Positions 16,380-47,192 are shown, numbered from the stretch's first letter. The stretch: 60,250 nucleotides of DNA from a bacterium (GCA_036840065.1 DAITZZ010000008.1:5845-66094); one strand, 5' to 3'. The notes: generated by a model not told the origin, from the sequence alone. A program made the numbers and translations.

Positions 16380-19300
16380 TCAGCGTAGAACGTTGAAGGT
16401 CGTCGTTGCCGAGAACGGACCGCTGAGCATGCGAACGAAGTACACACCGTTGGCCAGGTCGGTGACGTTCACCGAGAGCTCGTACTGACCGGATGGAACC
16501 ACCGGACTGTGTACCTCGAGGACAAGATCACCCATGGAGTTGACGATCTGGAACGAGGTGGAAAGCGTCAGACCGGTCGTGTACGGGATCGTCAGCACAT
16601 CACGCACTGGATTGCTGCGTGGTGGCTGAATTCCTCCGCGGTTCGAGCCAAACTTTACCAGACGGCCAGTGGTGTTGCAGACTTCTGCCATCGTCACCGA
16701 TGAGCGATCGCCCACCGGAACAAGACAGTTGATCGGAGTAGTTACACTCATCTGCAGCGGAAGTGCCGAATCGGCGTTCAAGAAGACGTCGAACGTCGGC
16801 GTGACGAATACGCCCTGCTGGAGCGTCGAGCCCCCTGCCTGAGCATCAATGTCAACACGGCCGATCGCCGCCGTAGGTGTAAACGTCCAGCCGTTCATCT
16901 GCTGTGCACCGAGTGAACGGAAGCGTATTGATGCAGCGTCGTGCGTGATCGCGATAGCGAAGCTTTGCGGACGCGCCCCGGTGAATTCGGCGGCATCGTA
17001 GGACACGTTGATCGGTACGGCAACGGCCTGGCCGACACGACCTTCAGCGATAGTGCCGAAGCTGAACTGTACCGGAGTTGTGACGCCCTCGCCATCGATA
17101 CTGACGGTGAGCTTCAGACTCTGGTCATTCGGGATCGTGAAGGTTGCGGCTGTGCGTCCGATCACGCTTGGCTGGAACGTTACGGTGATGACCTTCGACT
17201 GACCGGGCTTGAGGACGAATCCCGTCGTCTGATCCAGCGTGAACGATCCGACATCACCACTGCCGATCGGTGCCTGGCAGGTGAGATCAAACTGCGTGCT
17301 GTTGTTGGTAATCGTAAACGTCGCCGTCCGGGTTGCACACGTGAGCGTCTTCGGGAATGTCACTGGATCCAGTGTTGATGCGTCGCGTCCGAGCCCTTCG
17401 ACAACAACCAGCGTGTCGGCATATGGTGGCACAGGGCCTGGGCCGGTTTTGGCGTCATGGCTGATGCGCACGTTCACACGGTTGTTTCCGACCACCTGCG
17501 GTGTGAAGGACACGGGGATCTCCAGCGGAGCTGAGTTCGGCTTGAGGGTGATCGGAAGTGTCGGGAGCGTGCCCGTGAGTGCAAATGCGGCTGTTGGAGA
17601 GTCGAAGGCGATCGTACCGATCACCAGATCGCTGGTCGGATCGGTGTTCTGGATCACGATCTTCCCGGTCTCCGGCGAGAGCGTCGAGACGGTCCAGGGT
17701 GAGAACGTGTACCCCGTTGCTTTGATCGCCGGGAGGAATCCGCTTCCGGTCACGCGGCCGGTCAGAGGCTGGCTCTCCTTGCCCTTGATCACGACTACGA
17801 CCTCGGCGCTGTGCGCGCCGCGCGTCTGGGGCGTGTATGTGACTGGAATCTTGAGTACCTCGCTGGCGGCCAGTCTCGTTGGAGCGGGCAGCGTGAAGAC
17901 GAAGTTCGGGTTCGATGGATCAGACAGTGTGATCGAGCTGATCTCGGCTGCTTCTGAGTTGAGATTGCTGATGCTGATCGCACCCGTGCCCGGAGTGAGC
18001 ACGCGCAGACGACCCAGATCGATACTGTCGATGATCACACGGGGCTCAATGATCTCAACTTCGATCGTTGAGATCTGTTCGCCACAGATCTCTGGTGGCA
18101 GACCGAAGTTGATCGTTGTGGATTTTACCCCTGGGGATGCAGCGAGGATGTCGAAATCGACGTCCAGACACCCGCCATTGGGAGCAAGGGTGAAAGGACC
18201 GGTGTTACGCACCACGATGTCGGCATTAGGCACCGTAACTCGAAGGTTTCCACTGATGGCAACCTTGCCGGAGTTCTTGATCATGCAGGTGACCTTCTGC
18301 TGGCGAGGCTGACCGAGGGGAACCTTGCCAAGATTCTCACGAGCAATGCTCTCGACATCGCATGGGGCTGTTGCAAGACCATCCAGGCTGAGCTGGACAG
18401 GTGAGCCACAGGTGCCGGCGATCTCAATCAGTGCCGTGCGGCTGCCGATGCCTTTCGGCGTGAAGATCAGCTCAATGTTGATCGACTTGCCAGCTGGAAC
18501 GACTTGGCCGATGATGTTGCCGGATAACTGAAAATCCGCGCTGTTTGCGCCGGCCACCGTCACGCTCTTTACCGCGACGTCGAAGTTTCCGATGTTGGTC
18601 AGAAGTGCCGTAGCCGTTGTCGACTGGCCCTGCTGGATGGTCTGAAAGGTAACCTTGTTCGGGCGGAACTCCAGCTGCGGTGCTTTCACCGAGAAGATGT
18701 TGTCGGAAACGTCACTGGAGGCCGGGGCCGACCCTTCCTTGTTGACGTATACATCGTCCGATCCCGGACCCGAGTTGTTCGGCAGGGTGATCCCCGGGGG
18801 GGTGAACGTGATCGGTCCGCGGAAGATATCGGTCTTGTATGCAAAGTTCAGTCGGTCGGTTGCCGACGTCTGCTGGTAGGCTCCCGTTGTTGGCTTGGTG
18901 CCGGTGGTAAATGCCAGTGGGTAGCCCTGCGAATCATACGTGACGTAGAAGTCACGGTCAGCGGCATTCGGGAACGCCGGCGAGGAAACGGTCGCACCCG
19001 TGCGGCTGATGCCAACCTCGGCATATCGCTGAAACTTCCCGGCTACGATCACCGTGACGTTACCGGCCGGGTCATACTGCAGACCAATGTCGGTTAGCAT
19101 TGCATAACTGATCCGCGTTGCCGTTCCTTTGGAGCCAGCCTGCCAGTCGAGCTTTCCTGTCGAGTCGAACTTAAACAGGAAGAAGTTGCGCTGATCGAGT
19201 GGACCTCTCGAGAAGGAGTAAGGACCGAAAGTAGCAGAAGGACTCGAGTAGTAGCCGGCAACGTAGTAATTGCCCCTGTTGTCGACCACACAGCCGATGA

Positions 19301-21098
19301 CCTTTTCCTCGTTGGAAGCTGATCCGGACAGGACGAGAACCTTCGAAGGGTCGATGATCTTGCCGTCACTGTCGAGCTCCACGAAATACCCGTCAATATT
19401 CCCTGCTGCACCGGTGACGTTCACCGGGCCGAACTTCGAGTTACCCTCGAAGAAGCCGGTGGCAAACACCTTGAAGCCACTTGGCAAGACGGCAACCGAC
19501 GTTGCGGTTTCATCACCGAAGCCACCAAGCCCCGTTGCCCAAGCATACTGACGCACCGGGCTGACACTGACGCGAACCTTGTAGTTAACGCCGGCACGCG
19601 GAGCGATCCACTTGTAGACAAGCCCCGTGGCCTGCGGGTCGATCGACTTCCACGTCGCGCCACCATCGTCGGAGTACTCCAGGTTGACCGGCTGTGTTGG
19701 TAGGACGCCGGCCCACTTGATCAGAATGGTATCGCACGTAGAAAAGAGCTCTCCGCCGACAGGGGACTGAAGAAGCACCACGCCCGTGCCACCGACGAGG
19801 GTGAACTTTGGCGGACATGGTGAGCCGGTAAAGGCCAGCTCGGCCTGGCGGAAGACCTGTGAAGAGCCCTGCTTGAATTCCACGCGAAGAACGCGTTTCG
19901 CACCGGGCGCAAGATTGAAAGGGGCGAACGTGGGCTGATTGAACGGGAAGTTCCAGTCCACCACACGGAAGTATGTCGATGGGGAGATGCTCTGCCCGGT
20001 CGCGGCAAAGGTTGCTCCGCGTGCCGTCAACGTGACGTTCGCAAATGACACTTGATTGGCGGCAGGATCGCCGCAGAACAGCACCGGATCACTGATCTCA
20101 ACACCCGACACGCTGTTGGGAGGAGTCACGACCGTCACATTGGCCGTAGGGTTTACGCCGCGGAGCATGGTAATGCCGGCCACACGTGTGCGCCCCTGCT
20201 CGGTGCAGGTGTACGGAGAGACCCACGTGATGCGGCAAATCTTCCGCACCTGTGTTTCGAGAGCCAGGAACGACATGATATCGACGAGCTTCGTTTCATC
20301 CGTCACGATCGACTTTCCGCCGGTTCCCTTGGAGAGGGCTTCGAGAGTCCAGTGCGTGGCAGGCTCGAGGATCGTCACGCTGTAGAAGCGGATACCCTGG
20401 GCCAGTAGCTTCTGTGTGTTGTCCGAAACAAACTTCGATTCACTCTTTGTTACCGAGACGTCGGCGATCCCCGGGTTCGGATGCCCGTCGGTGAGGAAGA
20501 AGACGTACTTGGGCAGGTTAGCCGGGCGCTTCTTGAAGAGGTCGTAAATATTCTTTGATGGGTCTTCAAACGGCAGCACGTAGTTCGTGTTGGTAAGCAC
20601 CTTCATCTTGGTGAGTGAGTCGATGATCGGCTTGGCCGAACTGGCCCATTCGACGGTGGTCTCGACTGTGCCCGAGAACGTTACGAGCGAGACGCGCGTT
20701 TCACCGGTGAACTTCACCTGGTTGACGAAGGCCCGGATGGCATCCTTGGCATAGTCAAAGCGCTTACGGCCCTGAACATCGTCGTCCATGGACTTCGATC
20801 GATCGAGGATGATCACGATGCTCGCTTCCGGGTCGCTCTGCAGAACATCACAGTCGTGCGTCACAGAGGCCGTGAGGTCGATCGGTGCGCCGCCCTGGGC
20901 TGTTTCCGTCACCCGGAAATCGGCCTTGGCAAGGTCGGTGATCGGGTTGCCCGTCGCGTCCAGCGCAATGTAGTCCACTGTGATCTTCGGGAACGACAGC
21001 GTGTTGACGCCGTAGACATTCAGTGACTGAGCGAGCGTTGCGGCACTGGCGATGGCCAGTAAAGCCAGACTCAGAAAAGCTGTTCGAAGCTGTTTCAT
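16380..21098 (-). CDS. 1572-aa secreted surface protein: VWA domain, beta-propeller-like segment, tandem Ig-like/ASH repeats, T9SS type A-like CTD
   Basis: Signal peptide MKQLRTAFLSLALLAIASAATLA; MIDAS DRSKS..T..FFLTDG; repeated LxNxG...F.P.. Ig modules; C-terminal SNPV..GVYFVRM..FNVLR. Confidence 0.85.
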   Translation of the reverse strand: MKQLRTAFLSLALLAIASAATLAQSLNVYGVNTLSFPKITVDYIALDATGNPITDLAKADFRVTETAQGGAPIDLTASVTHDCDVLQSDPEASIVIILDRSKSMDDDVQGRKRFDYAKDAIRAFVNQVKFTGETRVSLVTFSGTVETTVEWASSAKPIIDSLTKMKVLTNTNYVLPFEDPSKNIYDLFKKRPANLPKYVFFLTDGHPNPGIADVSVTKSESKFVSDNTQKLLAQGIRFYSVTILEPATHWTLEALSKGTGGKSIVTDETKLVDIMSFLALETQVRKICRITWVSPYTCTEQGRTRVAGITMLRGVNPTANVTVVTPPNSVSGVEISDPVLFCGDPAANQVSFANVTLTARGATFAATGQSISPSTYFRVVDWNFPFNQPTFAPFNLAPGAKRVLRVEFKQGSSQVFRQAELAFTGSPCPPKFTLVGGTGVVLLQSPVGGELFSTCDTILIKWAGVLPTQPVNLEYSDDGGATWKSIDPQATGLVYKWIAPRAGVNYKVRVSVSPVRQYAWATGLGGFGDETATSVAVLPSGFKVFATGFFEGNSKFGPVNVTGAAGNIDGYFVELDSDGKIIDPSKVLVLSGSASNEEKVIGCVVDNRGNYYVAGYYSSPSATFGPYSFSRGPLDQRNFFLFKFDSTGKLDWQAGSKGTATRISYAMLTDIGLQYDPAGNVTVIVAGKFQRYAEVGISRTGATVSSPAFPNAADRDFYVTYDSQGYPLAFTTGTKPTTGAYQQTSATDRLNFAYKTDIFRGPITFTPPGITLPNNSGPGSDDVYVNKEGSAPASSDVSDNIFSVKAPQLEFRPNKVTFQTIQQGQSTTATALLTNIGNFDVAVKSVTVAGANSADFQLSGNIIGQVVPAGKSINIELIFTPKGIGSRTALIEIAGTCGSPVQLSLDGLATAPCDVESIARENLGKVPLGQPRQQKVTCMIKNSGKVAISGNLRVTVPNADIVVRNTGPFTLAPNGGCLDVDFDILAASPGVKSTTINFGLPPEICGEQISTIEVEIIEPRVIIDSIDLGRLRVLTPGTGAISISNLNSEAAEISSITLSDPSNPNFVFTLPAPTRLAASEVLKIPVTYTPQTRGAHSAEVVVVIKGKESQPLTGRVTGSGFLPAIKATGYTFSPWTVSTLSPETGKIVIQNTDPTSDLVIGTIAFDSPTAAFALTGTLPTLPITLKPNSAPLEIPVSFTPQVVGNNRVNVRISHDAKTGPGPVPPYADTLVVVEGLGRDASTLDPVTFPKTLTCATRTATFTITNNSTQFDLTCQAPIGSGDVGSFTLDQTTGFVLKPGQSKVITVTFQPSVIGRTAATFTIPNDQSLKLTVSIDGEGVTTPVQFSFGTIAEGRVGQAVAVPINVSYDAAEFTGARPQSFAIAITHDAASIRFRSLGAQQMNGWTFTPTAAIGRVDIDAQAGGSTLQQGVFVTPTFDVFLNADSALPLQMSVTTPINCLVPVGDRSSVTMAEVCNTTGRLVKFGSNRGGIQPPRSNPVRDVLTIPYTTGLTLSTSFQIVNSMGDLVLEVHSPVVPSGQYELSVNVTDLANGVYFVRMLSGPFSATTTFNVLR

Positions 21099-21206
21099 GG
21101 TTGCTCCCACTCCGGACTGTTGTTGGTTCATGGAGATTCTCATAATTCTAAAGACTCGAACTGAAGTTTCGGTTACAGGTGAACACATCCTCAAACGTTC
21201 CTCCGC

Positions 21207-22241
21207 TCAAACCACCGCCTGCTCAAGAACGCGGAACGTTCTGGCCGTGGCGTCAAGCTCGGCGTTGACCCCAAGAGGCAACGTGAGCTTACTCTTGACG
21301 TGGCCGAAGGGCAGTCCGTAGACCACTGGAACGCCGAGCGACGCCAGTCGCTGCTCGAAGACCTGCTGGAGGCTTAACGATGGTCCGGAGATGGACGTTC
21401 CGCGAGCTTCACAGTCGCGGAAGTTGCCCAGCGCCACAGCCTTTGCAGATTGAAGCTTTCCGGCAAGCCAGAGCTGGGTCAGCATGCGGTCAACCCTGAA
21501 CGGCTCTTCGTTGACTTCTTCAAGAAACAGAATGGAGTCTGTCGTGTCAATCTCAAACTTTGTGCCAAGAGTGCTGACCACCAGTGCCAGGTTCCCGCCA
21601 GTTAGACGCCCCTGGGCTCTGCCCTCACTGATGACCGTCAGTCGCGAGTTCGTGAAGGTGGTCAGCGGCGGAGCATTCTCCGGCAGGATCACACCCTGGA
21701 GGGACTGCACGGTGAAGCTGTCGAATGTCGATGAGGCAACAGGGCCGTGGAAGGTGACAACGCCGCTGAGCTGATGCGCCGCGATGAGCAGGGCCGTGAT
21801 GTCCGAAAACCCCATGATGATCTTGCCGGCCTGACGGATCGCTTCGAAGTCCAGCATCGGTAGAATGCGCATTACTCCATAACCGCCACGGGCGCAGATC
21901 ACGGCATCGACCTCCGGATCTTCGATGAACTCCATGAACTCCGATGCTCGGTCCTGGTCGGGTGCCGACAGATACCCATTGCGGCGCGAGACATTCTTGC
22001 CCAGCTTTACACGCACGCCCCATTCACGGCACAGCGCCACAAAGTCGGCGATATCACCGGTTGATGCAGCGCTCGCAGGGCACACGATACCGACCGTCGA
22101 GCCGGGGCGCAGTCCTTTGGGTAGAACGCGCGTAAGGGGCTCACGGGTGCCGCTCTCAACCGACGCCAAAGCCCGAGCGCTGGCGGCACCTGCCGCCACA
22201 GCTGCTGTGGCCATGGTTGTAACGAAGGAACGTCGTTTCAT
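21207..22241 (-). CDS. LD-carboxypeptidase (peptidase S66) with Tat signal peptide
   Basis: MKRRSFVTTMATAAVAAG twin-Arg leader; ARGGYG, GFSDIT (Ser), FLEEVNE (Glu), PFGH (His). Confidence 0.9.
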   Translation of the reverse strand: MKRRSFVTTMATAAVAAGAASARALASVESGTREPLTRVLPKGLRPGSTVGIVCPASAASTGDIADFVALCREWGVRVKLGKNVSRRNGYLSAPDQDRASEFMEFIEDPEVDAVICARGGYGVMRILPMLDFEAIRQAGKIIMGFSDITALLIAAHQLSGVVTFHGPVASSTFDSFTVQSLQGVILPENAPPLTTFTNSRLTVISEGRAQGRLTGGNLALVVSTLGTKFEIDTTDSILFLEEVNEEPFRVDRMLTQLWLAGKLQSAKAVALGNFRDCEARGTSISGPSLSLQQVFEQRLASLGVPVVYGLPFGHVKSKLTLPLGVNAELDATARTFRVLEQAVV

Positions 22242-22283
22242 GCCGTGTTCTTTGTTTCGAAAAGGACACACTCCTGCAACCGA

Positions 22284-22291
22284 CAAATCTA
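22284..22291 (-). promoter_or_regulatory. -7 element TAGATTTG for the LD-carboxypeptidase gene
   Basis: Minus strand reads ttcgTAGATTTG, ending 42 nt before ATG 22241. Confidence 0.65.
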
Positions 22292-22379
22292 CGAATCTTT
22301 CGCCCCCTCGGTGATAGGTTTAGGAACGACGAAAATCGTGTGCGCGGCCCCCTCATCCGGCCATGATCGGGCATCTGCG

Positions 22380-22387
22380 TATATTCG
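22380..22387 (+). promoter_or_regulatory. -7-type element TATATTCG for tRNA-Ser
   Basis: TAnnTTCG variant ending 7 nt before the tRNA 5' end. Confidence 0.55.
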
Positions 22388-22394
22388 CCCTCTC

Positions 22395-22481
22395 GGAAAG
22401 GTGCAAGAGTGGTTGAATTGGCACGCCTGGAAAGCGTGTGTGCCGGCAACGGTACCGCGGGTTCGAATCCCGCCCTTTCCG
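22395..22481 (+). tRNA. tRNA-Ser, anticodon GGA; CCA not encoded
   Basis: Acceptor GGAAAGG/CCTTTCC with discriminator G; D-loop GAGTGGTTGAA; anticodon arm CACGC-ctGGAaa-GCGTG; long variable arm; T-loop GTTCGAATC. Confidence 0.96.
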
Positions 22482-22549
22482 CTAACCCATCGGGTTGGCA
22501 CGGACTTCCGTGCCGAACGGCCCAGGTTTTTGGTGTCCAAGAGTAACGC

Positions 22550-23008: not shown

Positions 23009-23054
23009 CCTCACACCTCAAACCTCACACCTCAAACCTCAAACCCCAAACCCA
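23007..23054. repeat. Heptamer tandem repeat (A/C)ACC(T/C)CA, about 7 copies, starting at the LytR_C stop codon
   Basis: aacctca cacctca aacctca cacctca aacctca aacccca aaccca. Confidence 0.88.
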
Positions 23055-23056
23055 TC

Positions 23057-35229: not shown

Positions 35230-38200
35230 GTGAAAAGAGCCCCACTCATCCTCGTTGCCTTAGGTCTTGTTTTCGGTCTGCAGCTATCTGCGCAGATCGA
35301 GAAGGTGTTGCCGAAGCGGAGCTCATCATCACTGGAAGGAACGTCCTTCGTTGTCGGGTTCATGCAGAATGAGATCCTGGAGATCGGCGCTGACCCGCGG
35401 CTGCAAATCTTCATCTCGTCGCAGTACGATGCAACGGTAACCATCGAGTCGGCAGCATTGGGGCGAGTTGTCGTTCCGATCGCGGCAAAGACCGTGCACG
35501 TTGAGACGCTCAGCCCCTATCATGCCAACACCGCCTCGGAGATGGTCCAGCAGAAGAGCGTCTTTATCACATCGGACGTCCCGGTGGTTGTCTACGTTCT
35601 CAATACGCTCCTGCGGTCGACAGACTCCTATGCGGCAATCCCCATACGGCATCTCGGAACGCAGTATTACAGTGTCAACCGTCCAACAGACTATTACCTG
35701 CCGAACAACCGTGATCGCACGGCTACGATCCCGCGTGTGGGTGAGTTCATGGTCATGGCCGTTGAAGATGACACCCGTGTGACCATTACTCCCGCGGCAA
35801 CGACAGGCCGGATGGGTATCGCGGCCCGTACGCCGTTTAGTGTCAATCTCGACAAGGGCGACTGTTATCTCGTGCAGGCACGGGCCACGGGGCATGGCAG
35901 AGATGACCTTACGGGGTCGTCGATCAGTTCTACCAAACCTGTTGCCGTGATATCCGGCCATATGCGCAGTAGCATACCGTTGTCAATGGGCGGCTCGAAG
36001 GATCATCTTGTCGAGCAGCTGACGCCGGCAGATAAATGGGGACGTGCCTACGTTACAGCACCGCTTGCCATGAGCAACAGACCTGACATGTACAGGATCA
36101 TGGCGTCTCTGCCGGGGCAAACGATCCGACTGACCACCGCCAACGGACTGAAGAACTTTCAGCTATCAGCGGTGGGTGCTTGGGCCGACACGCTGCTCTC
36201 GGAGCCTGCTTCATGGAGTTCGGCCGACCCCTTCTTCATGGTCCAACTGATGTCGAGTCAGATCGATACTACACGATCCTTCGATCCGGCTATGGTGATC
36301 GTGCCACCGATCGAGCAGTTCGTGAACGAAACGCTGTTCCGGTTCCCAACGCTGGAACCGGACAACAGCATTCGCAATCAGCGCTTTTTCTATTGCATCA
36401 ACCTTGTGGCGACTCACGATGCCCTCTCGACGCTCAGGATCGACGGTCGATTGGCGACTGCCACGGCACCGCTGCTCGCAATGCAGGTCGTTCCCGGTAC
36501 GAGCATTCACTGGGCGCATGTATATCTACAGGAAGGTACGCACGTTGTCACCTGTGACAGCGGTTCATTCAGTGCCATCATGTACGGAACGTCAAGGAAT
36601 GACTCCTATGCCAATCTTGTGGGGCTGGCGTTTGAGCCTCTGAGAAAACGCGACGATACGCCCCCTGTGTATAGCTCGAAGATCGACTGCGGGACTGTCA
36701 CGGGCAGCATTCGAGACACCTCGCGCGACACAGCAAATCTCAAGGACGTTGCGGTGATTGGCTCCAGAACGTTTAACTACATCTGGTCGATCTCCGAGCC
36801 CCTTGACTCTGCGGGCAGCGTAGAGTTCCAGGCGAGCGTGCGCGACATGACCCGAGATGCACAGTTGGTTATCCACGCCTATGATGATCGAGGAAACGGC
36901 AAGGAATGGCTCTACCGATACGATGCTCCGCTGATCGATGTCGTCCGAGACGTTGTAATCGACGCTCAGCGGGGAAGAGAGCGTTGCACGACGGTGGTGA
37001 TCCGCAATAGGGACTCGACACCGGTGACCATTCGTGGGCTCAGCAGGCAGGGGAATCAACGCATCATCGTTACCGACCCATCCGGTCCTTTCACGATCAA
37101 TGCCCGGGATTCGGTCTCGGTGCGGGTATGCGCAACGCAGTGGGCCGACACCACGGTGATGGCCGCGTCGATCGACATTGAGCTGGCCTGCGGACTGTTT
37201 CGAACGTTCTACGTTAAAACGCGTGTCAGCTCAAGTATCACTGGCGATACGATCGACTTCGGTGACGTGCGTCTTGGTGACACAGCATGCGGGCGTGTGG
37301 CGATCATCAACAACGGAGATAGACCCACCGATCTTGAAAAGCTCATTGCCACGAGGCTCGACTCCAGTTTTGTACTTGATACCGCGGCGCTTGGTCTCCC
37401 ACGAACGATCCCAGCCGGTGATACGGTCTGGGTCGACGTTTGCGTCATACCGCGTCAGCAGGGGGCGATCACACGAATCGACTCTATCGTCTCATCCTCT
37501 GGAGTGGATGCGTGGATTGTCTGCCGGGCCCGCGGCGTGCAACCTCGTGTTGCATCGGTAGTGATCGACTGGAAAGAACGTCGTGTAGGTTCAATCAATG
37601 ACACGACGATCGTTCTGCGCAATACCGGCGATGGGTGGTGTCTGGCTGAACCCTCCCTTGCACCGGCTTCTTCAGCGTTCTTACTCTCGGGAGTTCCCAG
37701 TTCAGGGGCTCGACTTGATGCCGGGGACTCGCTACTGCTTCGAGCATCATTCCGTCCAATGACGCGCGATACTCTCTCAACGGTTGCGCCTGTAAGCATC
37801 GACTGGACTCCGCACGCGCCCGTGTCGATCACGTTGATGGGCATAGGGGTGATGCCGGATATCGCGCTGCAGGACGTGAACTTTGGCACCATCGTTATTG
37901 ACACGCAGCGAGACACTCTTGTTGACCTCATCACCACTGGATATTCGGGCGGGAACGCGGAGTTGCTCGTGCGGGCCATCAGTATTGTTGGTCCCGACTC
38001 ATCGAGTTTTGTGCTTCCTGCATCACTCTTCACCAGCGTCGGAACACGCCGCCCCCTTCCGTCACGACTTCAGGACGTTGTTGTCTTTGCTCCCACGCGA
38101 CTCGGCCTACATGAGTGTTTCGTCGATGTCGACCACGACGCCGTGCCGCACGGTCAGGTTGGGCGCAGCAGATTCCGGCTCTATGGCCGTGCCATCGACA

Positions 38201-39225
38201 GACCACGTCCGGATGTGACGCTTGATTTCGGCATGCGCCTGCGCGTTCGGCCATGCAGCGACGAACCCATCACCATTGTTTTGGACAATCAAGGCACGGC
38301 CCCGACAAGAGTCGATAGTGTTACCGTGAATCTCGGTGGTGACCTTTTGGATGTGAGCCGCAATGTTGGTCTGCTTGATCTTCTTCCCGGGCAGCGCTGG
38401 ACGTACTCGTTCACCCACCGGTGGAATGTTGAATCGGAACGACGCGCTACAATTCGTGTTGTGGATTCGGCGGGAGTCGTTCTGGTCGATACACTCGTGA
38501 TCGAGATCGTTGAGCCCAAGACCTCTATCGAAGCTTCATTCATGGATGGCTCGGGAAGCGCCGCCGGACCTGCGAGAATACGTCTCTTGGCTGGTCTTGC
38601 CGACGAACAGGACGTCGTTCTGCCGATCACGCTGCGTCTGAATATCGACAGGCGACGGTTCATTCTCGGACCTCTCGACTCCTCTCAGGTGGTACTAACC
38701 ACGCCTGCGGGGGCGAGGCTGATCCCGGCTTCCATCAGGCAGGATTCTGCACACATCGAGGTTCTCCTGACGGATGGCGCCAAGGGACCATGGACCATCG
38801 ACTGTAGAGTGTTGGGGACGGTGCTGTGGAAAGATCCCGACCCCGATAGCATGCGAGCAACTCTTCTGGGCACGCCCTGCTATCTCCCGAAACTATCGAA
38901 TGACGTAGAATTCGGTATCGATCCTTGCGGCTCGCGTCGGCGTATCGTGAACATTGGTTCCGTCAGAGGAATCACCCTGCGTCCGCTTGGCCAGCCATTC
39001 AGCCAGGTCATCGCATTGGAAGTCGAATCATCACTCAACGCAACCGCAACGGTATGGGCCGAGTCTCTTGCAGGCAGTCAATTTCTGTTGACCGAACATT
39101 TGTCTTTGCAAAAGGGACGTCAGCATTGTAATTTCTCTTGTTCGGGTTGGCCATCAGGGCTGTATAGGCTGGTGTTTATGCTTGAACAAGGGGTTGAAGT
39201 CACGAACATCATCATCGTCAACTAA
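35230..39225 (+). CDS. 1331-aa secreted protein: IgGFc-binding-like N-terminal domain, Ig-like/ASH repeats, divergent T9SS CTD
   Basis: Signal peptide; EGTSFVVGFMQN..LQIFISS, KDHLVEQL..WG..Y, DPAMVIVPPIEQF, YGTSRNDSYA; C-terminal GWPSGLYRLV..IIIVN. Confidence 0.82.
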   Translation: MKRAPLILVALGLVFGLQLSAQIEKVLPKRSSSSLEGTSFVVGFMQNEILEIGADPRLQIFISSQYDATVTIESAALGRVVVPIAAKTVHVETLSPYHANTASEMVQQKSVFITSDVPVVVYVLNTLLRSTDSYAAIPIRHLGTQYYSVNRPTDYYLPNNRDRTATIPRVGEFMVMAVEDDTRVTITPAATTGRMGIAARTPFSVNLDKGDCYLVQARATGHGRDDLTGSSISSTKPVAVISGHMRSSIPLSMGGSKDHLVEQLTPADKWGRAYVTAPLAMSNRPDMYRIMASLPGQTIRLTTANGLKNFQLSAVGAWADTLLSEPASWSSADPFFMVQLMSSQIDTTRSFDPAMVIVPPIEQFVNETLFRFPTLEPDNSIRNQRFFYCINLVATHDALSTLRIDGRLATATAPLLAMQVVPGTSIHWAHVYLQEGTHVVTCDSGSFSAIMYGTSRNDSYANLVGLAFEPLRKRDDTPPVYSSKIDCGTVTGSIRDTSRDTANLKDVAVIGSRTFNYIWSISEPLDSAGSVEFQASVRDMTRDAQLVIHAYDDRGNGKEWLYRYDAPLIDVVRDVVIDAQRGRERCTTVVIRNRDSTPVTIRGLSRQGNQRIIVTDPSGPFTINARDSVSVRVCATQWADTTVMAASIDIELACGLFRTFYVKTRVSSSITGDTIDFGDVRLGDTACGRVAIINNGDRPTDLEKLIATRLDSSFVLDTAALGLPRTIPAGDTVWVDVCVIPRQQGAITRIDSIVSSSGVDAWIVCRARGVQPRVASVVIDWKERRVGSINDTTIVLRNTGDGWCLAEPSLAPASSAFLLSGVPSSGARLDAGDSLLLRASFRPMTRDTLSTVAPVSIDWTPHAPVSITLMGIGVMPDIALQDVNFGTIVIDTQRDTLVDLITTGYSGGNAELLVRAISIVGPDSSSFVLPASLFTSVGTRRPLPSRLQDVVVFAPTRLGLHECFVDVDHDAVPHGQVGRSRFRLYGRAIDRPRPDVTLDFGMRLRVRPCSDEPITIVLDNQGTAPTRVDSVTVNLGGDLLDVSRNVGLLDLLPGQRWTYSFTHRWNVESERRATIRVVDSAGVVLVDTLVIEIVEPKTSIEASFMDGSGSAAGPARIRLLAGLADEQDVVLPITLRLNIDRRRFILGPLDSSQVVLTTPAGARLIPASIRQDSAHIEVLLTDGAKGPWTIDCRVLGTVLWKDPDPDSMRATLLGTPCYLPKLSNDVEFGIDPCGSRRRIVNIGSVRGITLRPLGQPFSQVIALEVESSLNATATVWAESLAGSQFLLTEHLSLQKGRQHCNFSCSGWPSGLYRLVFMLEQGVEVTNIIIVN

Positions 39226-39236
39226 GGCAATCGGGT

Positions 39237-40052
39237 ATGAGAAAGTTGGGTTACGCACTCCTGGCAACACTCCTCTTTGCGACGTCAACCACCGTTCTTG
39301 CTCAGCAGGAAATCGGTGCTCGCGCCACACCTCTGCAGCCAGCGCGGCGTTCCCCGAGGATCTACGTTGGCCCGGTGGCTGGTTACAACCGCTCGCTCCA
39401 CTCGTCGAGCTTTCAGTCGGTTGCCGGCGACGTCCTTTGCCCGACATTCACCAGTGGCACAGAGAACGGCTACTACGTGGGTATGTCCTTCGAGTACCTC
39501 CTTGGCAAGCCGCGTGAATCCAAGTCATCCATCATTGCCCGGGCCGTTTACAACACCTTCCCTGCGAACTTTTCGCAAGGGGGCGATACACTCCCGTCAC
39601 TCGACCCGAACACCGGCGAAAAGTACCTGAGTGCAATTGAGCATACGGCGGCGATCCAGTACTCAACGTTCGACATTGAGCTGATCTACAAGCTAAATCT
39701 CTTTAACTCGAGCTTCGGAGTGGTTGTCGGTCCAACGGCAGGCTTCGTTGTCGGTTCGGATCGCGTTCAGCGCATGTCGATCATTGATCCGGATAATGCG
39801 ACGTTTGAAGTCGTGCCGGGCGTTGAGTATGAGAACTTCAATCGAACACAGATCACGGCTCGTGATCAGATCGAAGGTCGCGCAGGCATGCGTCTTGCTA
39901 TCAAGGCCGGCGTGCAGTACGAGATCGCTGTTGGTCGCATTCTGGTGGTTCCATGTGCCTATTACAACTTCGGAATCACGAAGCTGAGCGACGCCGACAA
40001 CATTCGGGTCAATGCGCTTCAAGTAGGTGTCGACATCCGCTTCGCACTGTAA
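39237..40052 (+). CDS. Outer-membrane beta-barrel protein (PorT/OMP_b-brl-like)
   Basis: Signal peptide; amphipathic strands YVGPVAGYN, YYVGMSFEY, FGVVVGPTAGF, IKAGVQYEI; C-terminal QVGVDIRFAL. Confidence 0.75.
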   Translation: MRKLGYALLATLLFATSTTVLAQQEIGARATPLQPARRSPRIYVGPVAGYNRSLHSSSFQSVAGDVLCPTFTSGTENGYYVGMSFEYLLGKPRESKSSIIARAVYNTFPANFSQGGDTLPSLDPNTGEKYLSAIEHTAAIQYSTFDIELIYKLNLFNSSFGVVVGPTAGFVVGSDRVQRMSIIDPDNATFEVVPGVEYENFNRTQITARDQIEGRAGMRLAIKAGVQYEIAVGRILVVPCAYYNFGITKLSDADNIRVNALQVGVDIRFAL

Positions 40053-40081
40053 GTCCAGCCCACAACGTCTGATTCGACGAT

Positions 40082-40115: not shown

Positions 40116-40157
40116 GTGCTTTACCTGTGCTCTGCACGATTGAGGACCACTCCGAAT

Positions 40158-40658: not shown

Positions 40659-41521
40659 TGGGCAGTGGCTTTGCACCGCAGAAGAGGTTCAGTCAGAACT
40701 TCCTCACGGACGTTTCAACTGCCCGGGCGATCGCTGAGGCATTGCAGATCGGTGCGGGTGATCACGTAGTTGAGATCGGTCCCGGCAAGGGGGCTCTAAC
40801 GGTGCACCTTTGTGAATCGCTTGCCGATCGCATTGTGGGCGTCGAGCTTGATGACCGTGCGGTCCAGTTCCTCTCGCAGCAGTCGTGGGTACGCTCGGGG
40901 CGCGTGCAGATCGTACGCGGTGATGCTCTTGCACTTCGTGTCCGAGACCTTCTCCCGAGCACCGATCGTCAGCACCGATGCGTCATCGGGAACATCCCGT
41001 ACGCCATCACCAGCCCCCTGCTCTTCTGGCTCTTTTCGCAGGCGCACGAAGTGTCTCGCGGTGTGGTCATGATGCAGCGTGAGGTGGCCCGGCGTTGTGT
41101 GGCCGGCGTGGGGTCGAAAGATTACGGGATACTCTCGGTAGCAACCTGGCTGCATGCACGCGCCCGGCTGATGTTTCACGTCAAACCCGGATCGTTCTTT
41201 CCTCGCCCCGATGTGACCTCATCAGTCGTGCGCTTTGAACTTCTGGCAGAACCACCAATGCACCTGCCCGTTGAGGACTTCATGGAGTTTGTGCGCGCAG
41301 CGTTCTCGCAACGTCGCAAAGTGATGACCAATGCCTTGGCCGACTGGGCTCGTCGACACAACCTCGACCTCAAATCAGCGTCAGTGATTGGCGCTGTAGA
41401 CCTTGCCAGAACGCGGGCCGAGGAGTGTCCACCTCAACTGCTGGGCGAGATCTTTTTGGGCTTGGTCCGGCAAGACGTTGGGAAAATGAATCGTCAAGTA
41501 CCGGAGGGTACGAACGGATGA
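40658..41521 (+). CDS. rsmA: 16S rRNA m6,2A dimethyltransferase KsgA/RsmA
   Basis: KRFSQNFL, VEIGPGKGALT, GNIPYAITSP, MQREVARR, FFPRPDVTS, AFSQRRK. Confidence 0.95.
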   Translation: MGSGFAPQKRFSQNFLTDVSTARAIAEALQIGAGDHVVEIGPGKGALTVHLCESLADRIVGVELDDRAVQFLSQQSWVRSGRVQIVRGDALALRVRDLLPSTDRQHRCVIGNIPYAITSPLLFWLFSQAHEVSRGVVMMQREVARRCVAGVGSKDYGILSVATWLHARARLMFHVKPGSFFPRPDVTSSVVRFELLAEPPMHLPVEDFMEFVRAAFSQRRKVMTNALADWARRHNLDLKSASVIGAVDLARTRAEECPPQLLGEIFLGLVRQDVGKMNRQVPEGTNG

Positions 41522-42462
41522 CGCGAATGAGTATTCGAGACGCTTGGAGTATTCTGAAGAGCGATTTCGTCGCGGCCGACGTTTACGCCGCCGTCATGAT
41601 GACACTCTATGCCATCATGGCAGTTGTCTGTCATAACTCCATCGTAGGCAGTGTGTCGGTTGTCTGGACGAACGTCCTCATCATGACTCTTATTGCCGCT
41701 AGCATCGTACTCGTGCGCCTAACAGGTTCGGCGGCGGTGACGTTTGTCCGATACTTCTATGTGGTTCCGATCATCTACATGATGTATGATCAAACGCATC
41801 TCTTTGTGCCGGTCGTTAACCCCCACCTGTATGACAACGTGCTGATCGCGGCTGATCGAGCGCTGTTCGGGCAGGATCCCACGGTTTGGCTTTCGCATTT
41901 CGCTAATCCGTTTCTCACAGAGTTCCTCCAGATCTGCTATTTCCTCTTCTACTTCATGCCGGTATCTCATGCCATAGAGCTTTGGATGCGCGGCGAAACC
42001 GAAAAGGTTATACACTTCGCGCGGATGATGGCGTTTATGTTCTTTATCTCGTACGTGCTGTATTTCCTCTTGCCTGCCGTTGGACCGCGTTTTACGCTTC
42101 ATGACTTTGCCTTGACCAACACCGAGCTACCAGGAATCTGGTTCACCGAGACCCTGCGCAGCATCGTGAACATCGGTGGGGGAGTGATCGTTGGTACTGC
42201 TGATCCTGCCAGCGTTGTCAACCGCGACTGTATGCCCAGCGGCCACACGATGCTCACCATGGTGAACATTATCCTGGCCTTTCAAAACCGAAGCCGGCTC
42301 CGCTACGTGTTTTTACTATTGGGCACGGGGCTCATTTTTGCCACCGTGTACCTACGGTACCACTATGTTGTCGATCTCATCGCCGGAGCGATGCTCGTAA
42401 TTGTCTGTATGCCACTTGAAATTCATGTGGATAAGTTCATTCGCCGATTGGCTCGAAAATGA
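41518..42462 (+). CDS. PAP2 superfamily membrane protein, Aur1/IPC-synthase-like
   Basis: Multiple TMs; LPAVGPRF, DCMPSGHT, TVYLRYHYVVDLIAG. Confidence 0.82.
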   Translation: MTRMSIRDAWSILKSDFVAADVYAAVMMTLYAIMAVVCHNSIVGSVSVVWTNVLIMTLIAASIVLVRLTGSAAVTFVRYFYVVPIIYMMYDQTHLFVPVVNPHLYDNVLIAADRALFGQDPTVWLSHFANPFLTEFLQICYFLFYFMPVSHAIELWMRGETEKVIHFARMMAFMFFISYVLYFLLPAVGPRFTLHDFALTNTELPGIWFTETLRSIVNIGGGVIVGTADPASVVNRDCMPSGHTMLTMVNIILAFQNRSRLRYVFLLLGTGLIFATVYLRYHYVVDLIAGAMLVIVCMPLEIHVDKFIRRLARK

Positions 42463-42689
42463 ACTTTTCCGCTGTTTTGGATGTAACCAATCTTGTCCGG
42501 CGCTGTTATTCAGGTTGTCGCGGTAGATGTCAACAGTATTCCTGTTGATTTCTCTTCGACAAATGCAAGTTGGAAGTAACCGATTTTCGGTTATTTTATC
42601 CGGGTCCTGGCACGAATTGCCCATAGCAATATCGTGTCATCAAGTTGAAAGTCTAATCACTATCCCATTTCATTTTTAGGAGAAAGTCC

Positions 42690-45600
42690 ATGCGACTTCT
42701 TTCCAAACTGTTCTGCGGTATTCTTGCGAGCGTCGTGCTCACGCTGGCGGGATTTACCTCCGTAACAGCATCAGACGTCAAATCGTCTGAGCGTCGGGGA
42801 ACAATGGTTCTGACCGAAGGCCGCAACTACGTTGTCGGCTTCCCGCAGGTCTGGGCCAGTACGTCGGAAAAGGCTTTGAAGCCAGCTATGCAGTTGTTCA
42901 TCTCGGCCAAGCAGCGCACCAAGGTGCGTGTCCGCACCCCGGCTCTGATTAACGACAATGCACGTCTCGACCGTGAATTCACGGTAGAGGCGAACAAGGT
43001 TCTGAAGATTCCGATTACGGAAAGCTACATGCCTACCGCATCGGAGACAAAGACGGGATATGGCATTGTGGTTGAAGCCAACAAGCCTGTTTCTGTTTCG
43101 ACGTTCCAGGCATGGATGGGAAATGGTGAGCTTGCTCGTCACCTTCCTGTTGAAGCGTGGGGTCGTGCGTATTACACCGCAAACATGTATCAGGATCGCT
43201 ACGGCAACAATTCCGGATACAAGTATCGTCCGTCACAGATTCTTGTTATCGCCGCACGCGACAACACGGTTATCTCCTACACGCCAACTTGGGACACCGA
43301 AGGGGGCATGGAAACACCGCCAGTTCGCAAGGGCCAGACGGCAACGGTGACCCTTGAAAAAGGCGAAACGTTCCTGATCCGCGGAAAGATCGACGAGAAC
43401 ATGAACAAGGAGTGGTCGACAGACATGTCGGGCACATTCATTCGTTCCACCAAGCCATTTGCCGTCGTTTCAGGACACACCAAGGTTGCGATCCTTCGTT
43501 ACCCAGACGTGCTTCCTCCGACCGGTATGTTCGCCGCCGAAGCGCACTTTGTTCGCAACAACGTGCACGATGCTCAGCTTCCAGTCGAAATGGCCGGCAC
43601 AGAGTTCGTGACGATCCCAACGATGTATACGTCGGTTCGTGCCAACCCGGTTGGAACGACAGGCGCCGAGATCGGTATCGAAGACGACCGTGGTGATGTG
43701 GTTCGCTTCATCGCTCTTGAGGACGACACCAAGATCTTCCGGATGCGTAGCTCGGGCGACGGTCTCGCCGCTGAGCGTACGCTTCGTCGTGGTGAGTCGC
43801 ACATCGTTCCCGTTATGTCCATCGCAACGTTCTGGAAGTCTGACAAGCCGGTTCTGGCTACGCAGTATGGAAAGTCGTATGCGAAGGTTCTTCCTCCTGC
43901 CTTTGGCAAGGATGGTGGTGACAACACGCAGGGACATCCAACGGTTGAAGCTGGCATGCCGATGATGGAATACGTTCCATCGGTTGACCGCTGGACGAAC
44001 TATGGTGTCTTCTCGGCTCCCGAGGGGATGGACAACTTCATGAACATTGTCTACAAGACGGACGAGATCAACAAGATCAAGTTCGACGGCAAGAACCTCG
44101 GCTCATCTGTTGGTGGAGCATCGTTCAAGATCCAGGGTACGCCATACTCGGCTATCCGCGTGAGCGTATCGGTTGGTGATCACTATCTCGAATCCAATGA
44201 GCCGAACGTTCGTTGGATGGCTTGGACGTACGGATCACTCGACGGTATGCAGATGGGTCGTGCATACGGCACGCCGATCTCTGTGGATGTATCGATCCCA
44301 TGCGATGATTCGCTGTACGTAAAGGACACACCGATCTGCGGCGACATCGACGCAGAAGGCCAGATCATCCAACTTGGTGGTAAGTGCGGCTCGATCTTTG
44401 CCGTCTATCCCGAGGAACTCTCGAACTACCGTCTTGAAGTTGATCCTGACTTCGTCGGTGGTGACACCATCGTCAAGTTCAAGCTTATCGTCGAAGACAA
44501 GACGAAGGATGCTATGGCCGTTGTGCGTGTCGTAACGCGTTCGGGCAAGTTCGTCGAGAAGACCTACCAGTACACGGCGGACAAGATCAGCTGGACCCCA
44601 GCAAAGATCGATTTTGGTACAATTGCCTTTAACACGCCAGAGACGAAGACGATGACGATCACGAACCTCAGCAAGGATCGTCCGGTCAACGTCAAGAAGA
44701 TCTTTGTTCGCTCAGCCGCGCAGGTCTTTAAGATCGCTCCTCCGGGCGGCTTCGTACTTGGCCCTAGCCAGTCCCGCGATATCTCGATCACGGCAACGAT
44801 TCAAACAGCTCCACTTGTGCTCGACACAGTGCTGGTTGAACTTGATTGTTACACGCAGAAGACGACAGAAGTCCGTGTACGTGGCGAACAGCCACAGATC
44901 TTTGTCGGTGATGCAAATTGGGGTCAGGTCCCTGCGAGCTCACCTGGCATTCGCCGTAAGGTTGAGATCATCAATGGTAGCCGCGTTGAGCTCATTGTTA
45001 CGGGCTTCCAGGAAAGTCTGCTTGATGGAACGGGCAAATTCTTTGAACCAACGACGCTTGACGGCAAGCCGCTGGCCTCTGCATTCCCGATGACGATTCC
45101 TGGCAATGGCAAGTATGAGTTCTTCGTGTCATACTCGCCAAAGGGCGAAGCGAATGTGCCTCACACCGTTTCGGTGCCGTTCTACTCGAACGCAACGGAA
45201 GTGGATTCGCTCGCTGTGCTGACAGGTTCGGGCGTAACGTTCAATCTCGCAGTCGTAACTGAGCCATGGAACGAGCGTGTGATCGACAACATTCAGCGTG
45301 GACTGAGCATCAATGAGTATCGCAAGACAGTCACGTTCTCGAACTTTGGTGACCAACCGATTTCGTTCAACGCTCCTGTCATCCGTGGAACAGATGCTGC
45401 TGCCTTCCGAATCGTTGATAACGGCACGGCTGGCTCATTCCCAATTCAGCTTGTTGGCAAGGGTGACGGTCAGTCCCGTACGATCACCGTGGCATTCGTT
45501 CCAAACGAACTGCCTGGTCGCGGTGCCGAGCGCAACAACTACAAGGCCGAGCTCGTCTTCCCAACCAACTCTTCGGAGCAGAAGGAAGTCTCTGCTGAGC

Positions 45601-47192
45601 TCGTAGCTACCGCATGGCAGCCACACGTGAAGGGTGCCGATCTGGACTTCGGTCAGTTTAACCGTGGCGAAGCAGCGATCGTGAAGAACATTCAGATCGC
45701 GAACATCAGCAAGGATGACGAGTCTAACCCAACAACGGGCAACACGTCGGGCACGTCGAACGTGATCGTCACGGGTATCCGTCTGCTGGACCCGAACTCT
45801 CCGTTCGAACTGCTCAATGCTCCAACGCCGCAAAGCCCATGGATGATCAAGCCAGGTGAGGTTCCAACGGACCTTCAAGTGCGCTTCGATCCAAAGCTTT
45901 CCGGTACGTACTCAACGCCGTTCGTCATCGAGACGAATGTTGGTACCAACGGTCAGGCCCCTTATCAGCCACAGTATACGATCAAGGCACAAGTACAGGG
46001 TGGTGACTTCTATCCAACGGGTGGAAGCGTCAATCAGTACGTCCACAAGGATGCCATCATCAATGTCACCGTCAAGCACGACGAGAACGTGACACGTCGA
46101 TTCCAGTTTGCGGACATGGTCGAAGGTGCCGATGCTGCTCGCTTTACTGTTCTTCCGAACAAGGCAACAGGCGCTTACTACATCGATGTTGCTCCGGGTG
46201 AAACTGGCGTCATTGAAGTACGCTTCTCACCTGATCGTGTTACACTCATGGCAAATGGTCAGCGTGACATTGCTACTCCGAAGGCTGCTGCTCAGAGCCT
46301 CATCAGCCGCAACGATGAGTTCAAGGGAACTCTGAAGATCACAGACGAGCTGACGAAGATCGAGAAGGAAGCACCGGTCTCCGGAAATGGTCTGTACCTT
46401 GAAACAACAAACATGATCGGTGAAGGCTATCAGGCTGCGCCGGGTGGTTCGGTTGACGTTGCCGTTGAGCTCAAGGCAGATCCAGAGTCGCTTGACAAGG
46501 CTGACCTGACAGAACTCCGCGTTCGTCTCTCGTACGATCCGCGTATTGTTAAGCCTCGCTCGGGCAAGGCAGACATCATTCTGGCCGGAACACAGATGGA
46601 AGGCTGGACAGTTGTTAACGATCCGGTTCCTTTCGGTAAGCCAAGTGATGACTTCAACTCGATCGAAATCGATCTTGCCGATCAGCGCGCCACGAAGTCG
46701 CCACTGCGCAACATCGATGTGCCTGCCTTCAAGGTCAAGTTTGATGTCTTCCTGAATCAGTCCAAGCAGGGCACGTTCTCGACACCGATCAGCGTGTACA
46801 CGTACTGGAATGATCATGATCGCTCTGGCAACGACGAGCGCTACGTGCTCTTCCGTGACATCCCTGGCAAGATCACACTGACGCTCCCATGCGCCAACGT
46901 GAAGCGCCTTGTTGGTGTCAGCGGCACTCGCTTCTCGGTAGCTCCGGTCCGTCCAAATCCGGTCGTAAGCACTGGTGTGATTACGTACGGTGTAGGTATC
47001 GCAGCTCCAACACGCGTTGATCTCTTCAACGCGATGGGCGAGAAGGTTGCAACTCTTGTAGATCAGAAGCTCGAGGTTGGAACGTATGACCTTACGGTTG
47101 ACGCAAACATGCTGCCAGCCGGGACCTACTACTTCCAAGTTCTGTCCGGACCGTTCACAAGCGAGCCGCAGACGCTGACGATCGTCAAGTAA
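42690..47192 (+). CDS. 1500-aa secreted protein: IgGFc-binding-like N-terminal domain, Ig-like/ASH repeats, T9SS type A CTD
   Basis: Signal peptide; EGRNYVVGFPQ..MQLFISA, RHLPVEAWG..YY, SGHTKVA, MMEYVPSVDRW; C-terminal PNPV..GTYYFQV..LTIVK; AGGAGA upstream of ATG. Confidence 0.88.
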   Translation: MRLLSKLFCGILASVVLTLAGFTSVTASDVKSSERRGTMVLTEGRNYVVGFPQVWASTSEKALKPAMQLFISAKQRTKVRVRTPALINDNARLDREFTVEANKVLKIPITESYMPTASETKTGYGIVVEANKPVSVSTFQAWMGNGELARHLPVEAWGRAYYTANMYQDRYGNNSGYKYRPSQILVIAARDNTVISYTPTWDTEGGMETPPVRKGQTATVTLEKGETFLIRGKIDENMNKEWSTDMSGTFIRSTKPFAVVSGHTKVAILRYPDVLPPTGMFAAEAHFVRNNVHDAQLPVEMAGTEFVTIPTMYTSVRANPVGTTGAEIGIEDDRGDVVRFIALEDDTKIFRMRSSGDGLAAERTLRRGESHIVPVMSIATFWKSDKPVLATQYGKSYAKVLPPAFGKDGGDNTQGHPTVEAGMPMMEYVPSVDRWTNYGVFSAPEGMDNFMNIVYKTDEINKIKFDGKNLGSSVGGASFKIQGTPYSAIRVSVSVGDHYLESNEPNVRWMAWTYGSLDGMQMGRAYGTPISVDVSIPCDDSLYVKDTPICGDIDAEGQIIQLGGKCGSIFAVYPEELSNYRLEVDPDFVGGDTIVKFKLIVEDKTKDAMAVVRVVTRSGKFVEKTYQYTADKISWTPAKIDFGTIAFNTPETKTMTITNLSKDRPVNVKKIFVRSAAQVFKIAPPGGFVLGPSQSRDISITATIQTAPLVLDTVLVELDCYTQKTTEVRVRGEQPQIFVGDANWGQVPASSPGIRRKVEIINGSRVELIVTGFQESLLDGTGKFFEPTTLDGKPLASAFPMTIPGNGKYEFFVSYSPKGEANVPHTVSVPFYSNATEVDSLAVLTGSGVTFNLAVVTEPWNERVIDNIQRGLSINEYRKTVTFSNFGDQPISFNAPVIRGTDAAAFRIVDNGTAGSFPIQLVGKGDGQSRTITVAFVPNELPGRGAERNNYKAELVFPTNSSEQKEVSAELVATAWQPHVKGADLDFGQFNRGEAAIVKNIQIANISKDDESNPTTGNTSGTSNVIVTGIRLLDPNSPFELLNAPTPQSPWMIKPGEVPTDLQVRFDPKLSGTYSTPFVIETNVGTNGQAPYQPQYTIKAQVQGGDFYPTGGSVNQYVHKDAIINVTVKHDENVTRRFQFADMVEGADAARFTVLPNKATGAYYIDVAPGETGVIEVRFSPDRVTLMANGQRDIATPKAAAQSLISRNDEFKGTLKITDELTKIEKEAPVSGNGLYLETTNMIGEGYQAAPGGSVDVAVELKADPESLDKADLTELRVRLSYDPRIVKPRSGKADIILAGTQMEGWTVVNDPVPFGKPSDDFNSIEIDLADQRATKSPLRNIDVPAFKVKFDVFLNQSKQGTFSTPISVYTYWNDHDRSGNDERYVLFRDIPGKITLTLPCANVKRLVGVSGTRFSVAPVRPNPVVSTGVITYGVGIAAPTRVDLFNAMGEKVATLVDQKLEVGTYDLTVDANMLPAGTYYFQVLSGPFTSEPQTLTIVK

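Follow-up and report, generated by a model that had tools for sequence, protein, structure and literature searches.

The window analysed here, 60,250 nucleotides (nt) of an uncultured Kapabacteria-like bacterium (GCA_036840065.1, DAITZZ010000008.1:5845-66094), encodes three giant surface proteins, A, B and C. The head is VWA in A and IgGFc_binding in B and C, and the stalks of all three are Ig-like, of the HYDIN/ASH/choice-of-anchor D kind (Pfam, NCBIfam). N-termini resemble signal peptides on inspection (charged start, hydrophobic core, A-x-A/S-like pattern), from residue 1 in B and C and from Met33 in A, where the stretch MKQLRTAFLSLALLAIASAATLAQS is recognised by eye; the true start of A is likely Met33, at 21098. 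The three proteins share a C-terminal module of about 240 amino acids (aa), composed of a cohesin-like beta-sandwich, a 14-residue linker with a Cys/Arg motif and a type A C-terminal domain (CTD) of the T9SS (type IX secretion system). The linker, or stem, between the last two domains is the element under study. Judged from their sequences, the three copies in the window are one homologous (paralogous) module and not independent occurrences, and their shared spacing follows from common descent of the whole module.

A preliminary description of this DNA had singled out three 14-residue peptides in the linkers. They are CNTTGRLVKFGSNR of A (16638-16679, minus strand), CGSRRRIVNIGSVR of B (38926-38967, plus strand) and CANVKRLVGVSGTR of C (46890-46931, plus strand), and translate exactly as quoted there. 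The original 14-mer pattern matches these three sites in the six-frame translation of the window and no others; as 0.0015 matches are expected from the amino-acid composition of the window, chance does not account for the three peptides. The peptide ends 85-86 aa before the C-terminus in A, B and C, and its last Arg stands 9 residues ahead of the N/Q in N/Q-P, within the 9-10 residues previously claimed for all three. Positions below are counted from the motif Cys (0). Translation likewise confirms the residues formerly given 16 positions upstream, Cys in A and B and Tyr in C, and the head and Ig-stalk make-up assigned earlier agrees with the domain matches given above.

Relatives were collected with a profile of the pre-CTD region and motif, CTD excluded, run with HMMER against 1.84 billion representative proteins. 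Thirty matches were obtained, about 26 of them true members. These are VWA-type (~1570 aa) or IgGFc_binding-type (~1330-1500 aa) proteins, or fragments thereof, and in all of them the match stops 75-85 aa short of the C-terminus. A word-indexed protein search with the three-sequence profile gave four close orthologues. A word-indexed search with motif and CTD together, in which 633 candidates were scored, served as a negative control and not as a census; it returned a few family members (the family of B included) and generic CTD proteins without the motif. Among generic CTD proteins the motif is found in none of 29 sequences from the protein search, and it is also absent from locus L025.

The Cys and the Arg are invariant in all 25 relatives retrieved by homology. 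The family core in the wider samples is C-x4-R-[LI]-[VI]-x-h-[GS]-x3-[FY]-[AGS]-[LVI], where h is hydrophobic. Six of the 322 columns in the 25-tail alignment are invariant: the Cys, the Arg, a Leu of the cohesin-like part, and a Gly, a Gly and a Tyr of the CTD core. In the same alignment the conservation score is 0.64 for the motif, 0.54 for the CTD and 0.45 for the cohesin-like part, and gapped columns number 4 of 100 after the Cys versus 147 of 222 before it. In all complete proteins, 97-100 residues separate the Cys from the C-terminus. Position +14 is aromatic in 22 of the 25 aligned relatives. A set of 68 non-redundant junctions, biased by collection at positions 0, +5 to +10 and +21 to +23 and unbiased at -16 and +13 to +16, has no indels from -22 to 0, F or Y at +14 in 57, A, G or S at +15 in 48, and L, V, I or M at +16 in 63. 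Of the consensus first proposed, the Cys and Arg of C-x4-R are upheld in all 25 aligned relatives, but the [GS]-[SG]-x-R half is local to this lineage; its final Arg (+13) is kept in 4 of the 25 aligned relatives and 11 of the 68 junctions. The fixed spacing on both sides suggests that stem, cohesin-like domain and CTD work together as a unit.

A partner Cys is present in 47 of the 68 junctions, at -16 in 38 and at -15 in nine. Tyr occupies -16 in 19, most of them partnerless, and the IgGFc_binding subfamily to which protein C belongs mostly lacks the partner. A free Cys, as once supposed for C, is therefore a property of one subfamily and not of the family. Codons for the Cys, Arg and Leu vary synonymously between orthologous loci, which places selection at the protein level and rules out nucleotide-level constraint on the motif. 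Other candidate explanations of the motif were rejected. Partial duplication of the CTD, whose internal 'dllGrvV' hairpin the motif loosely resembles, scores -3.8 bits. The formylglycine motif of sulfatases (C-x-P-x-R) differs in spacing and requires Pro, the phosphatase C-x5-R requires a P-loop fold, and a lipobox Cys requires an N-terminal signal context.

A census was made with a degenerate DNA pattern for C-x4-R-[LIMF]-[VIM]-x-h-G-x10-P-N-P in 185,579 species, one genome each. It matched 89 stretches, of which 47 lie in frames that stop 98-100 codons past the Cys and end in a CTD. One more stops 97 codons on, without a CTD-like tail, and the remaining 41 are random matches in frames that break early or run on. 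A hidden Markov model (HMM) of the cohesin-like domain, built without the Cys, motif or CTD columns, gives in 41 of the 47 cases a match directly upstream of the Cys, with partial matches in two more and none elsewhere in these proteins. Neither the motif nor the cohesin-like domain was seen away from a CTD, either among the HMMER profile matches or with the cohesin-only HMM on the census proteins, in accordance with the confinement to CTDs assumed at the outset. What had been called a distinct pre-CTD element belongs to a C-terminal module of three parts; it is not a free-standing signal, being always tied to one cohesin-like domain.

Census contexts include further IgGFc_binding paralogues (loci L092, L058, L103), a VWA+SBBP protein (L079), and new heads, Ig_7, PKD and CBM_4_9, in proteins of 700-1300 aa (L104, L030, L105). 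Different heads on one tail support the idea that the C-terminal module is a recurrent one, in line with the earlier notion of swappable heads. Two or three copies occur per metagenome-assembled genome (MAG) (L037/L087/L103; L030/L034/L093; L056/L100/L104). At L100 (contig JAZKFS010000021.1) two open reading frames (ORFs) of one 8-kb locus carry the junction, as CAGDMRLVNVG and CGGELRLVNIS, which suggests local duplication of such cargos. Source labels are mostly Candidatus Kapaibacterium, Kapabacteria, Ignavibacteria and Bacteroidota, with some Armatimonadota, Patescibacteria, Hyphomicrobiales and Chitinophaga. Contigs with near-identical or clearly orthologous genes bear conflicting names (Chitinophaga pinensis, Ignavibacteria, Melioribacter, Patescibacteria, Hyphomicrobiales and Armatimonadota; loci L001, L016, L020, L024, L030, L032, L079 and more), and many of these MAG labels are probably wrong. 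Tails of A and C are 97-99% identical to contigs CALRYC010000010.1 and CANHFG0100001xx; those of Ca. Kapaibacterium ZLKRG33 are 78-91% identical, and its A-to-C spacing is likewise ~30 kb. In two Ca. Kapaibacterium genomes a conserved ORF of ~650 aa (L005, 3367-5322; L006, 3426-5360) directly follows a shorter VWA orthologue of ~1080 aa, which is without roughly 500 aa of A.

Tails of A (240 aa, 25-sequence alignment) and C (275 aa, 23 sequences) were modelled with AlphaFold2. Mean predicted local distance difference test (pLDDT) scores are 86.3 and 87.1. In both models a nine-strand sandwich is complete without the motif and stops 4 residues short of the Cys (strands at tail residues 9-138 in A, pLDDT mostly >85; 12-172 in C, pLDDT ~90). 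The CTD sandwich starts ~27 residues past the Cys (tail residues 169-238 in A). The motif core between them is the sole internal stretch of low confidence: pLDDT is <50 at tail residues 146-148 in A, where block 141-150 averages 53, and <50 at 177-185 in C. From residue 190 of C it is ~90 or more, and the chain from the +14 aromatic onward is placed next to the CTD. Matches of PF18962 and TIGR04183 start at the N of N/Q-P, 22 residues past the Cys and 9 after the last Arg of the 14-mer. As the first sandwich ends before the Cys, the core is of low confidence between confident domains and the CTD models start later, the motif, in these models, does not form the last cohesin strand and lies outside the CTD fold; it appears as a conserved linear segment in the junction. 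The two readings that would have refuted the preliminary description, a last strand of a generic cohesin/Ig fold and a portion of an existing CTD HMM, are both set aside by these limits.

Neither Pfam nor NCBIfam gives a significant match for the ~150 aa ahead of the motif, and the releases of these databases that were searched hold no model for the cohesin-like domain or for the Cys/Arg stem. Foldseek relates the upstream domain to cohesins 2jh2, 2w1n, 2vo8 and 2o4e, with target template modelling (TM) scores of 0.67-0.79; for the top three, 2jh2, 2w1n and 2vo8, the score is 0.77-0.79, the probability 1.0 and the root-mean-square deviation ~3 A. Sequence profiles match cohesins of the PDB weakly. 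Pfam Cohesin PF00963 reaches E 0.2 in C (12.3 bits; cutoff 24.1), and in the family matches 6 of 25 members with a best E of 4.4e-4, below the gathering score. The CLIPPER/DUF11 isopeptide domain 9ifr (preprint), which appears in the Foldseek listing, was discarded as a generic beta-sandwich likeness irrelevant to the motif.

The CTD status of the three proteins differs. A matches PF18962 (Por_Secre_tail) with 30.3 bits as a whole protein and 34.7 bits as a tail (cutoff 27), and TIGR04183 with 17.7 bits, below the cutoff of 23. C gives 16.8 and 21.6 bits for PF18962 (E 2.7e-4), below the cutoff of 27; a local CTD HMM gives it 82.7 bits, and its tail is clearly homologous to that of A. B has no Pfam or TIGRFAM CTD match. 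Profile-profile comparison makes its tail a homologue of those of A and C (hhalign 94.7%, E 6.4e-8, gapless). PF18962 matches 24 of 25 aligned family tails at E<=1, and motifs B (I-x-Y-x-x-G), D (G-x-Y) and E (terminal K/R) are present in A, C and nearly all relatives. The earlier statement that all three are T9SS cargos is thus supported for A at the Pfam threshold, but not for C, which falls below it, or for B. Within its own family the B tail is highly conserved; an invariant SLQKGxxHCNFSCSGW contributes two extra Cys, and IIIVN stands at the C-terminus in place of a basic last strand. This tail may represent a derived form of sorting domain, or a form that no longer functions with the T9SS. 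An ORF 12 nt downstream of B (39237-40052, plus strand, 271 aa) has a weak OMP_b-brl match (E 8.5e-5, below cutoff); its product could be a partner or anchor protein.

Coordinates are collected in Table 1.

Table 1. Features of proteins A, B and C and linkers of the two enzyme cargos, in coordinates of the window.
Feature	Position (strand)	Length or residues	Description and basis
Gene A	16380..21194 (-)	1604 aa	Secreted; VWA head, SBBP-like region, choice-of-anchor D Ig stalk, cohesin-like domain, Cys/Arg linker, type A CTD; ORF list, translation, Pfam, NCBIfam
A cohesin-like beta-sandwich	16689..17078 (-)	ORF residues 1373-1502	AlphaFold, Foldseek, local HMM 146.9 bits
A partner Cys at -16	16725..16727 (-)	Cys1490	Translation
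A linker core	16647..16679 (-)	Cys1506 to Gly1516	C-NTTG-R-LVKF-G; translation, alignment
A type A CTD with N-terminal extension	16383..16637 (-)	1520-1604	PF18962, AlphaFold
Gene B	35230..39225 (+)	1331 aa	IgGFc_binding head, Ig stalk, divergent cohesin-like domain, Cys/Arg linker, atypical CTD-like tail
B partner Cys	38878-38880 (+)	Cys1217	
B linker core	38926..38958 (+)	Cys1233 to Gly1243	C-GSRR-R-IVNI-G
B CTD-like tail	38968..39222 (+)		Ends IIIVN; terminal Lys/Arg absent
Gene C	42690..47192 (+)	1500 aa	IgGFc_binding head, Ig stalk, cohesin-like domain, Cys/Arg linker, type A CTD
C cohesin-like beta-sandwich	46398..46880 (+)	1237-1397	AlphaFold; local HMM 174.1 bits
C Tyr in place of Cys at -16	46842-46844 (+)	Tyr1385	
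C linker core	46890..46922 (+)	Cys1401 to Ser1411	C-ANVK-R-LVGV-S
C type A CTD	46932..47189 (+)		Opens F-S-V at +14 to +16; predicted cleavage between F and SV
PTSVLEN linker, sugar-dehydrogenase cargo	48568..48588 (+)		Gene 47242-48822
PTSVNEN linker, EEP nuclease/phosphatase cargo	59459..59479 (-)		Gene 59192-60181 or longer

Two enzyme cargos of the window serve as comparators. Both linkers cited for them in the preliminary description were found, and they differ from the linkers of A, B and C. The shared P-T-S-V-[LN]-E-N lies 82 and 93 aa from the respective C-termini, and no Arg stands at the place equivalent to the motif Arg. A, B and C have no P-T in the coil before the CTD, and carry [FYG]-[GS/I]-[IVT] at +14 to +16 instead. 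The P-T-S-V of the enzyme cargos resembles the PT/GI cleavage consensus mapped in Prevotella intermedia, and cleavage in this organism may use the PTSV-type linker as its 'standard' motif. The frame of the EEP nuclease/phosphatase (59192-60250, minus strand) is open to the window edge, and its 5' end is possibly cut.

Elsewhere in the window three enoyl-CoA hydratase/isomerase paralogues lie within 9 kb (50104-50886, 56816-57607 and 57604-58764, all on the minus strand), and a tyrosine recombinase (53725-54654) and a 7TM-HD receptor (54651-56795) are situated between them. A GWxTD-domain protein (4725-6095, plus strand) adjoins a PAS histidine kinase (1961-4264). SprA/Sov, PorV, PorU, PorZ and PorK-N are absent from the 60-kb window. 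No protease is linked to the loci, and gene neighbourhoods are housekeeping.

The general view of T9SS cargo processing is that the CTD fold governs it and that sequence matters little at the cleavage junction. In P. intermedia, cleavage falls in the coil that joins the folded CTD to the last mature domain. The consensus is PT/GI, with a general preference for G, S or A at +1 of the cut; Ile is conserved at +2, and the long CTDs measure 69-82 aa (PMC11969387). The preferred reading of the present motif is that it may be a conserved junction stem at, or containing, the point of sortase cleavage and attachment; confidence and doubt in this are about equal. After export by the T9SS, a PorU-type sortase would cut within the Cys/Arg junction, likeliest between the aromatic +14 and the small +15 and aliphatic +16, and so free a CTD of 84-85 aa. 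The stem C-x4-R-h-h-x-h-G would stay as the mature C-terminus beside the anchor point. In roughly two members out of three, a disulfide between Cys(-16/-15) and Cys(0) would pin it to the cohesin-like domain at its last hairpin, and the invariant Arg with the hydrophobics that follow would form a non-primed-side surface read by the processing or attachment machinery. Family motif B spans Cys+30 to +35, which puts the Cys/Arg stem within the expected cleavage zone, and [FY]-[AGS]-[LVI] at +14 to +16 fits the preference for a small residue at +1 and an aliphatic one at +2. By analogy with the published sites, the position of the stem makes a role in processing or anchoring plausible.

Several points weigh against cleavage and attachment at the stem. 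In Porphyromonas gingivalis, PorU reportedly cleaves independently of sequence (PMC4804311), so that the known mechanism needs no conserved recognition stem. Residues +14 to +16 of B are G-I-T, unlike the predicted site, and its tail keeps GxY only, lacks motifs B and E and ends in Asn. The census required PNP at +21 and was by design unable to find copies without a following CTD. The AlphaFold alignments are shallow (23-25 sequences), and low pLDDT could for that reason mask a real strand packed on a flanking domain. As the chain from +14 onward is placed confidently against the CTD, exposure may be lower at the proposed scissile bond than in the motif core.

The stem could instead be a purely structural feature, a stapled cap or edge strand of the cohesin-like domain (disulfide plus R-h-h-x-h) with no T9SS-specific role. 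Its constant adjacency to the same domain (41 of 47 by HMM, two more partially), the partner Cys in 47 of 68 junctions, the lack of indels from -22 to 0 and the alternation of hydrophobics typical of a beta-strand agree with this, as does the chance that low pLDDT stems from shallow alignments. Other observations fit a cap poorly: the Cys is kept in the ~19 of 68 members with Tyr at -16, which are mostly partnerless; the spacing to the CTD is as rigid as that to the cohesin-like domain, which is needless for an upstream-only feature; the nine-strand sandwich is complete without the motif in both models; and the domain is never seen without a CTD. A structural cap is on balance rather unlikely, although it has to be taken seriously.

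An interaction fold beside a conserved linear peptide also invites a docking or polymerisation peptide, in which the stem, once the CTD is removed, would attach by strand addition to the cohesin-like domain of a second molecule, or its Cys would enter an intermolecular disulfide, to give a surface layer or fibre. The mostly partnerless IgGFc_binding subfamily of protein C and the several paralogues with different heads per genome are in keeping with it. A precedent is PorK-PorG, which reportedly form an essential intermolecular disulfide in the T9SS (bioRxiv 10.1101/2025.03.18.644022). Assembly of this kind is quite improbable: the analysis brought up no dockerin-like partner, the partner Cys is intramolecular in most members, and intermolecular contacts are not required by anything in the data. 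The invariant Arg, followed by conserved aliphatics inside the sole flexible stretch, could also be the site of a dedicated endoprotease that releases or activates the proteins independently of PorU. Arg-gingipain cleaves after Arg in type V pilin maturation, and PorU is itself a gingipain-type C25 peptidase. Cleavage after the Arg is very unlikely: the loci have no linked protease, the other cargos of the window lack Arg at the equivalent place, and published T9SS sites favour a small P1', not a basic P1.

A further step beyond the preferred reading, cleavage and attachment at the stem, is to regard the tripartite tail as a separate class of T9SS cargo whose stem, at the mature C-terminus, is read by a dedicated step; this is doubtful and, as a whole, improbable. 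Such a step could be sequence-specific sortase recognition, capture through a disulfide by a partner in the outer membrane, or head-to-tail assembly mediated by cohesin. If the class were real, these giant adhesin-like proteins would anchor or polymerise unlike the sequence-independent attachment to A-type lipopolysaccharide (A-LPS) in Porphyromonas. If the sortase or attachment step reads the stem, T9SS anchoring would gain its first defined signal on the non-primed side, and with it a handle to predict which cargos are retained on the cell. If the stem is only a disulfide-stapled cap, it is still an unmodelled unit of domain and linker, useful for annotation of giant proteins in Kapabacteria and Ignavibacteria MAGs. 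In either case the junction is under stronger constraint than the CTD, with an invariant Cys and Arg, fixed flanking lengths, at least three kinds of head and several copies per genome. Literature searches gave no relevant report of a pre-CTD Cys motif in cargo or of T9SS cargo processing in Kapabacteria.

The cohesin-like domain has the nine-strand beta-sandwich in common with clostridial cohesins (2jh2, 2w1n, 2vo8, 2o4e, 5nrk; PF00963). It differs from these in lying below the Pfam threshold, in occurring once per protein beside a T9SS CTD and not as scaffoldin repeats, and in having no dockerin partner identified. The choice-of-anchor D family is known for Ig-like domains found with alternative C-terminal sorting signals. 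Its model NF012200 matches the stalks of A, B and C, and covers the stalk, not the junction. With type A T9SS cargo (P. gingivalis RgpB, P. intermedia; PMC11969387, PMC4560394), A and C share the seven-strand C-terminal beta-sandwich, motifs B, D and E, a short coil between the last mature domain and the CTD, and small and aliphatic residues at the expected +1 and +2 of the cleavage site. The fragment predicted to be released is close in length to the published long CTDs. The tail of B departs from type A cargo in the loss of motifs B and E. In known systems little or no requirement is described for the sequence on the non-primed side of the junction, whereas in the present family this side is strongly conserved, one specific cohesin-like domain always precedes it, and lengths are fixed within 3 residues.

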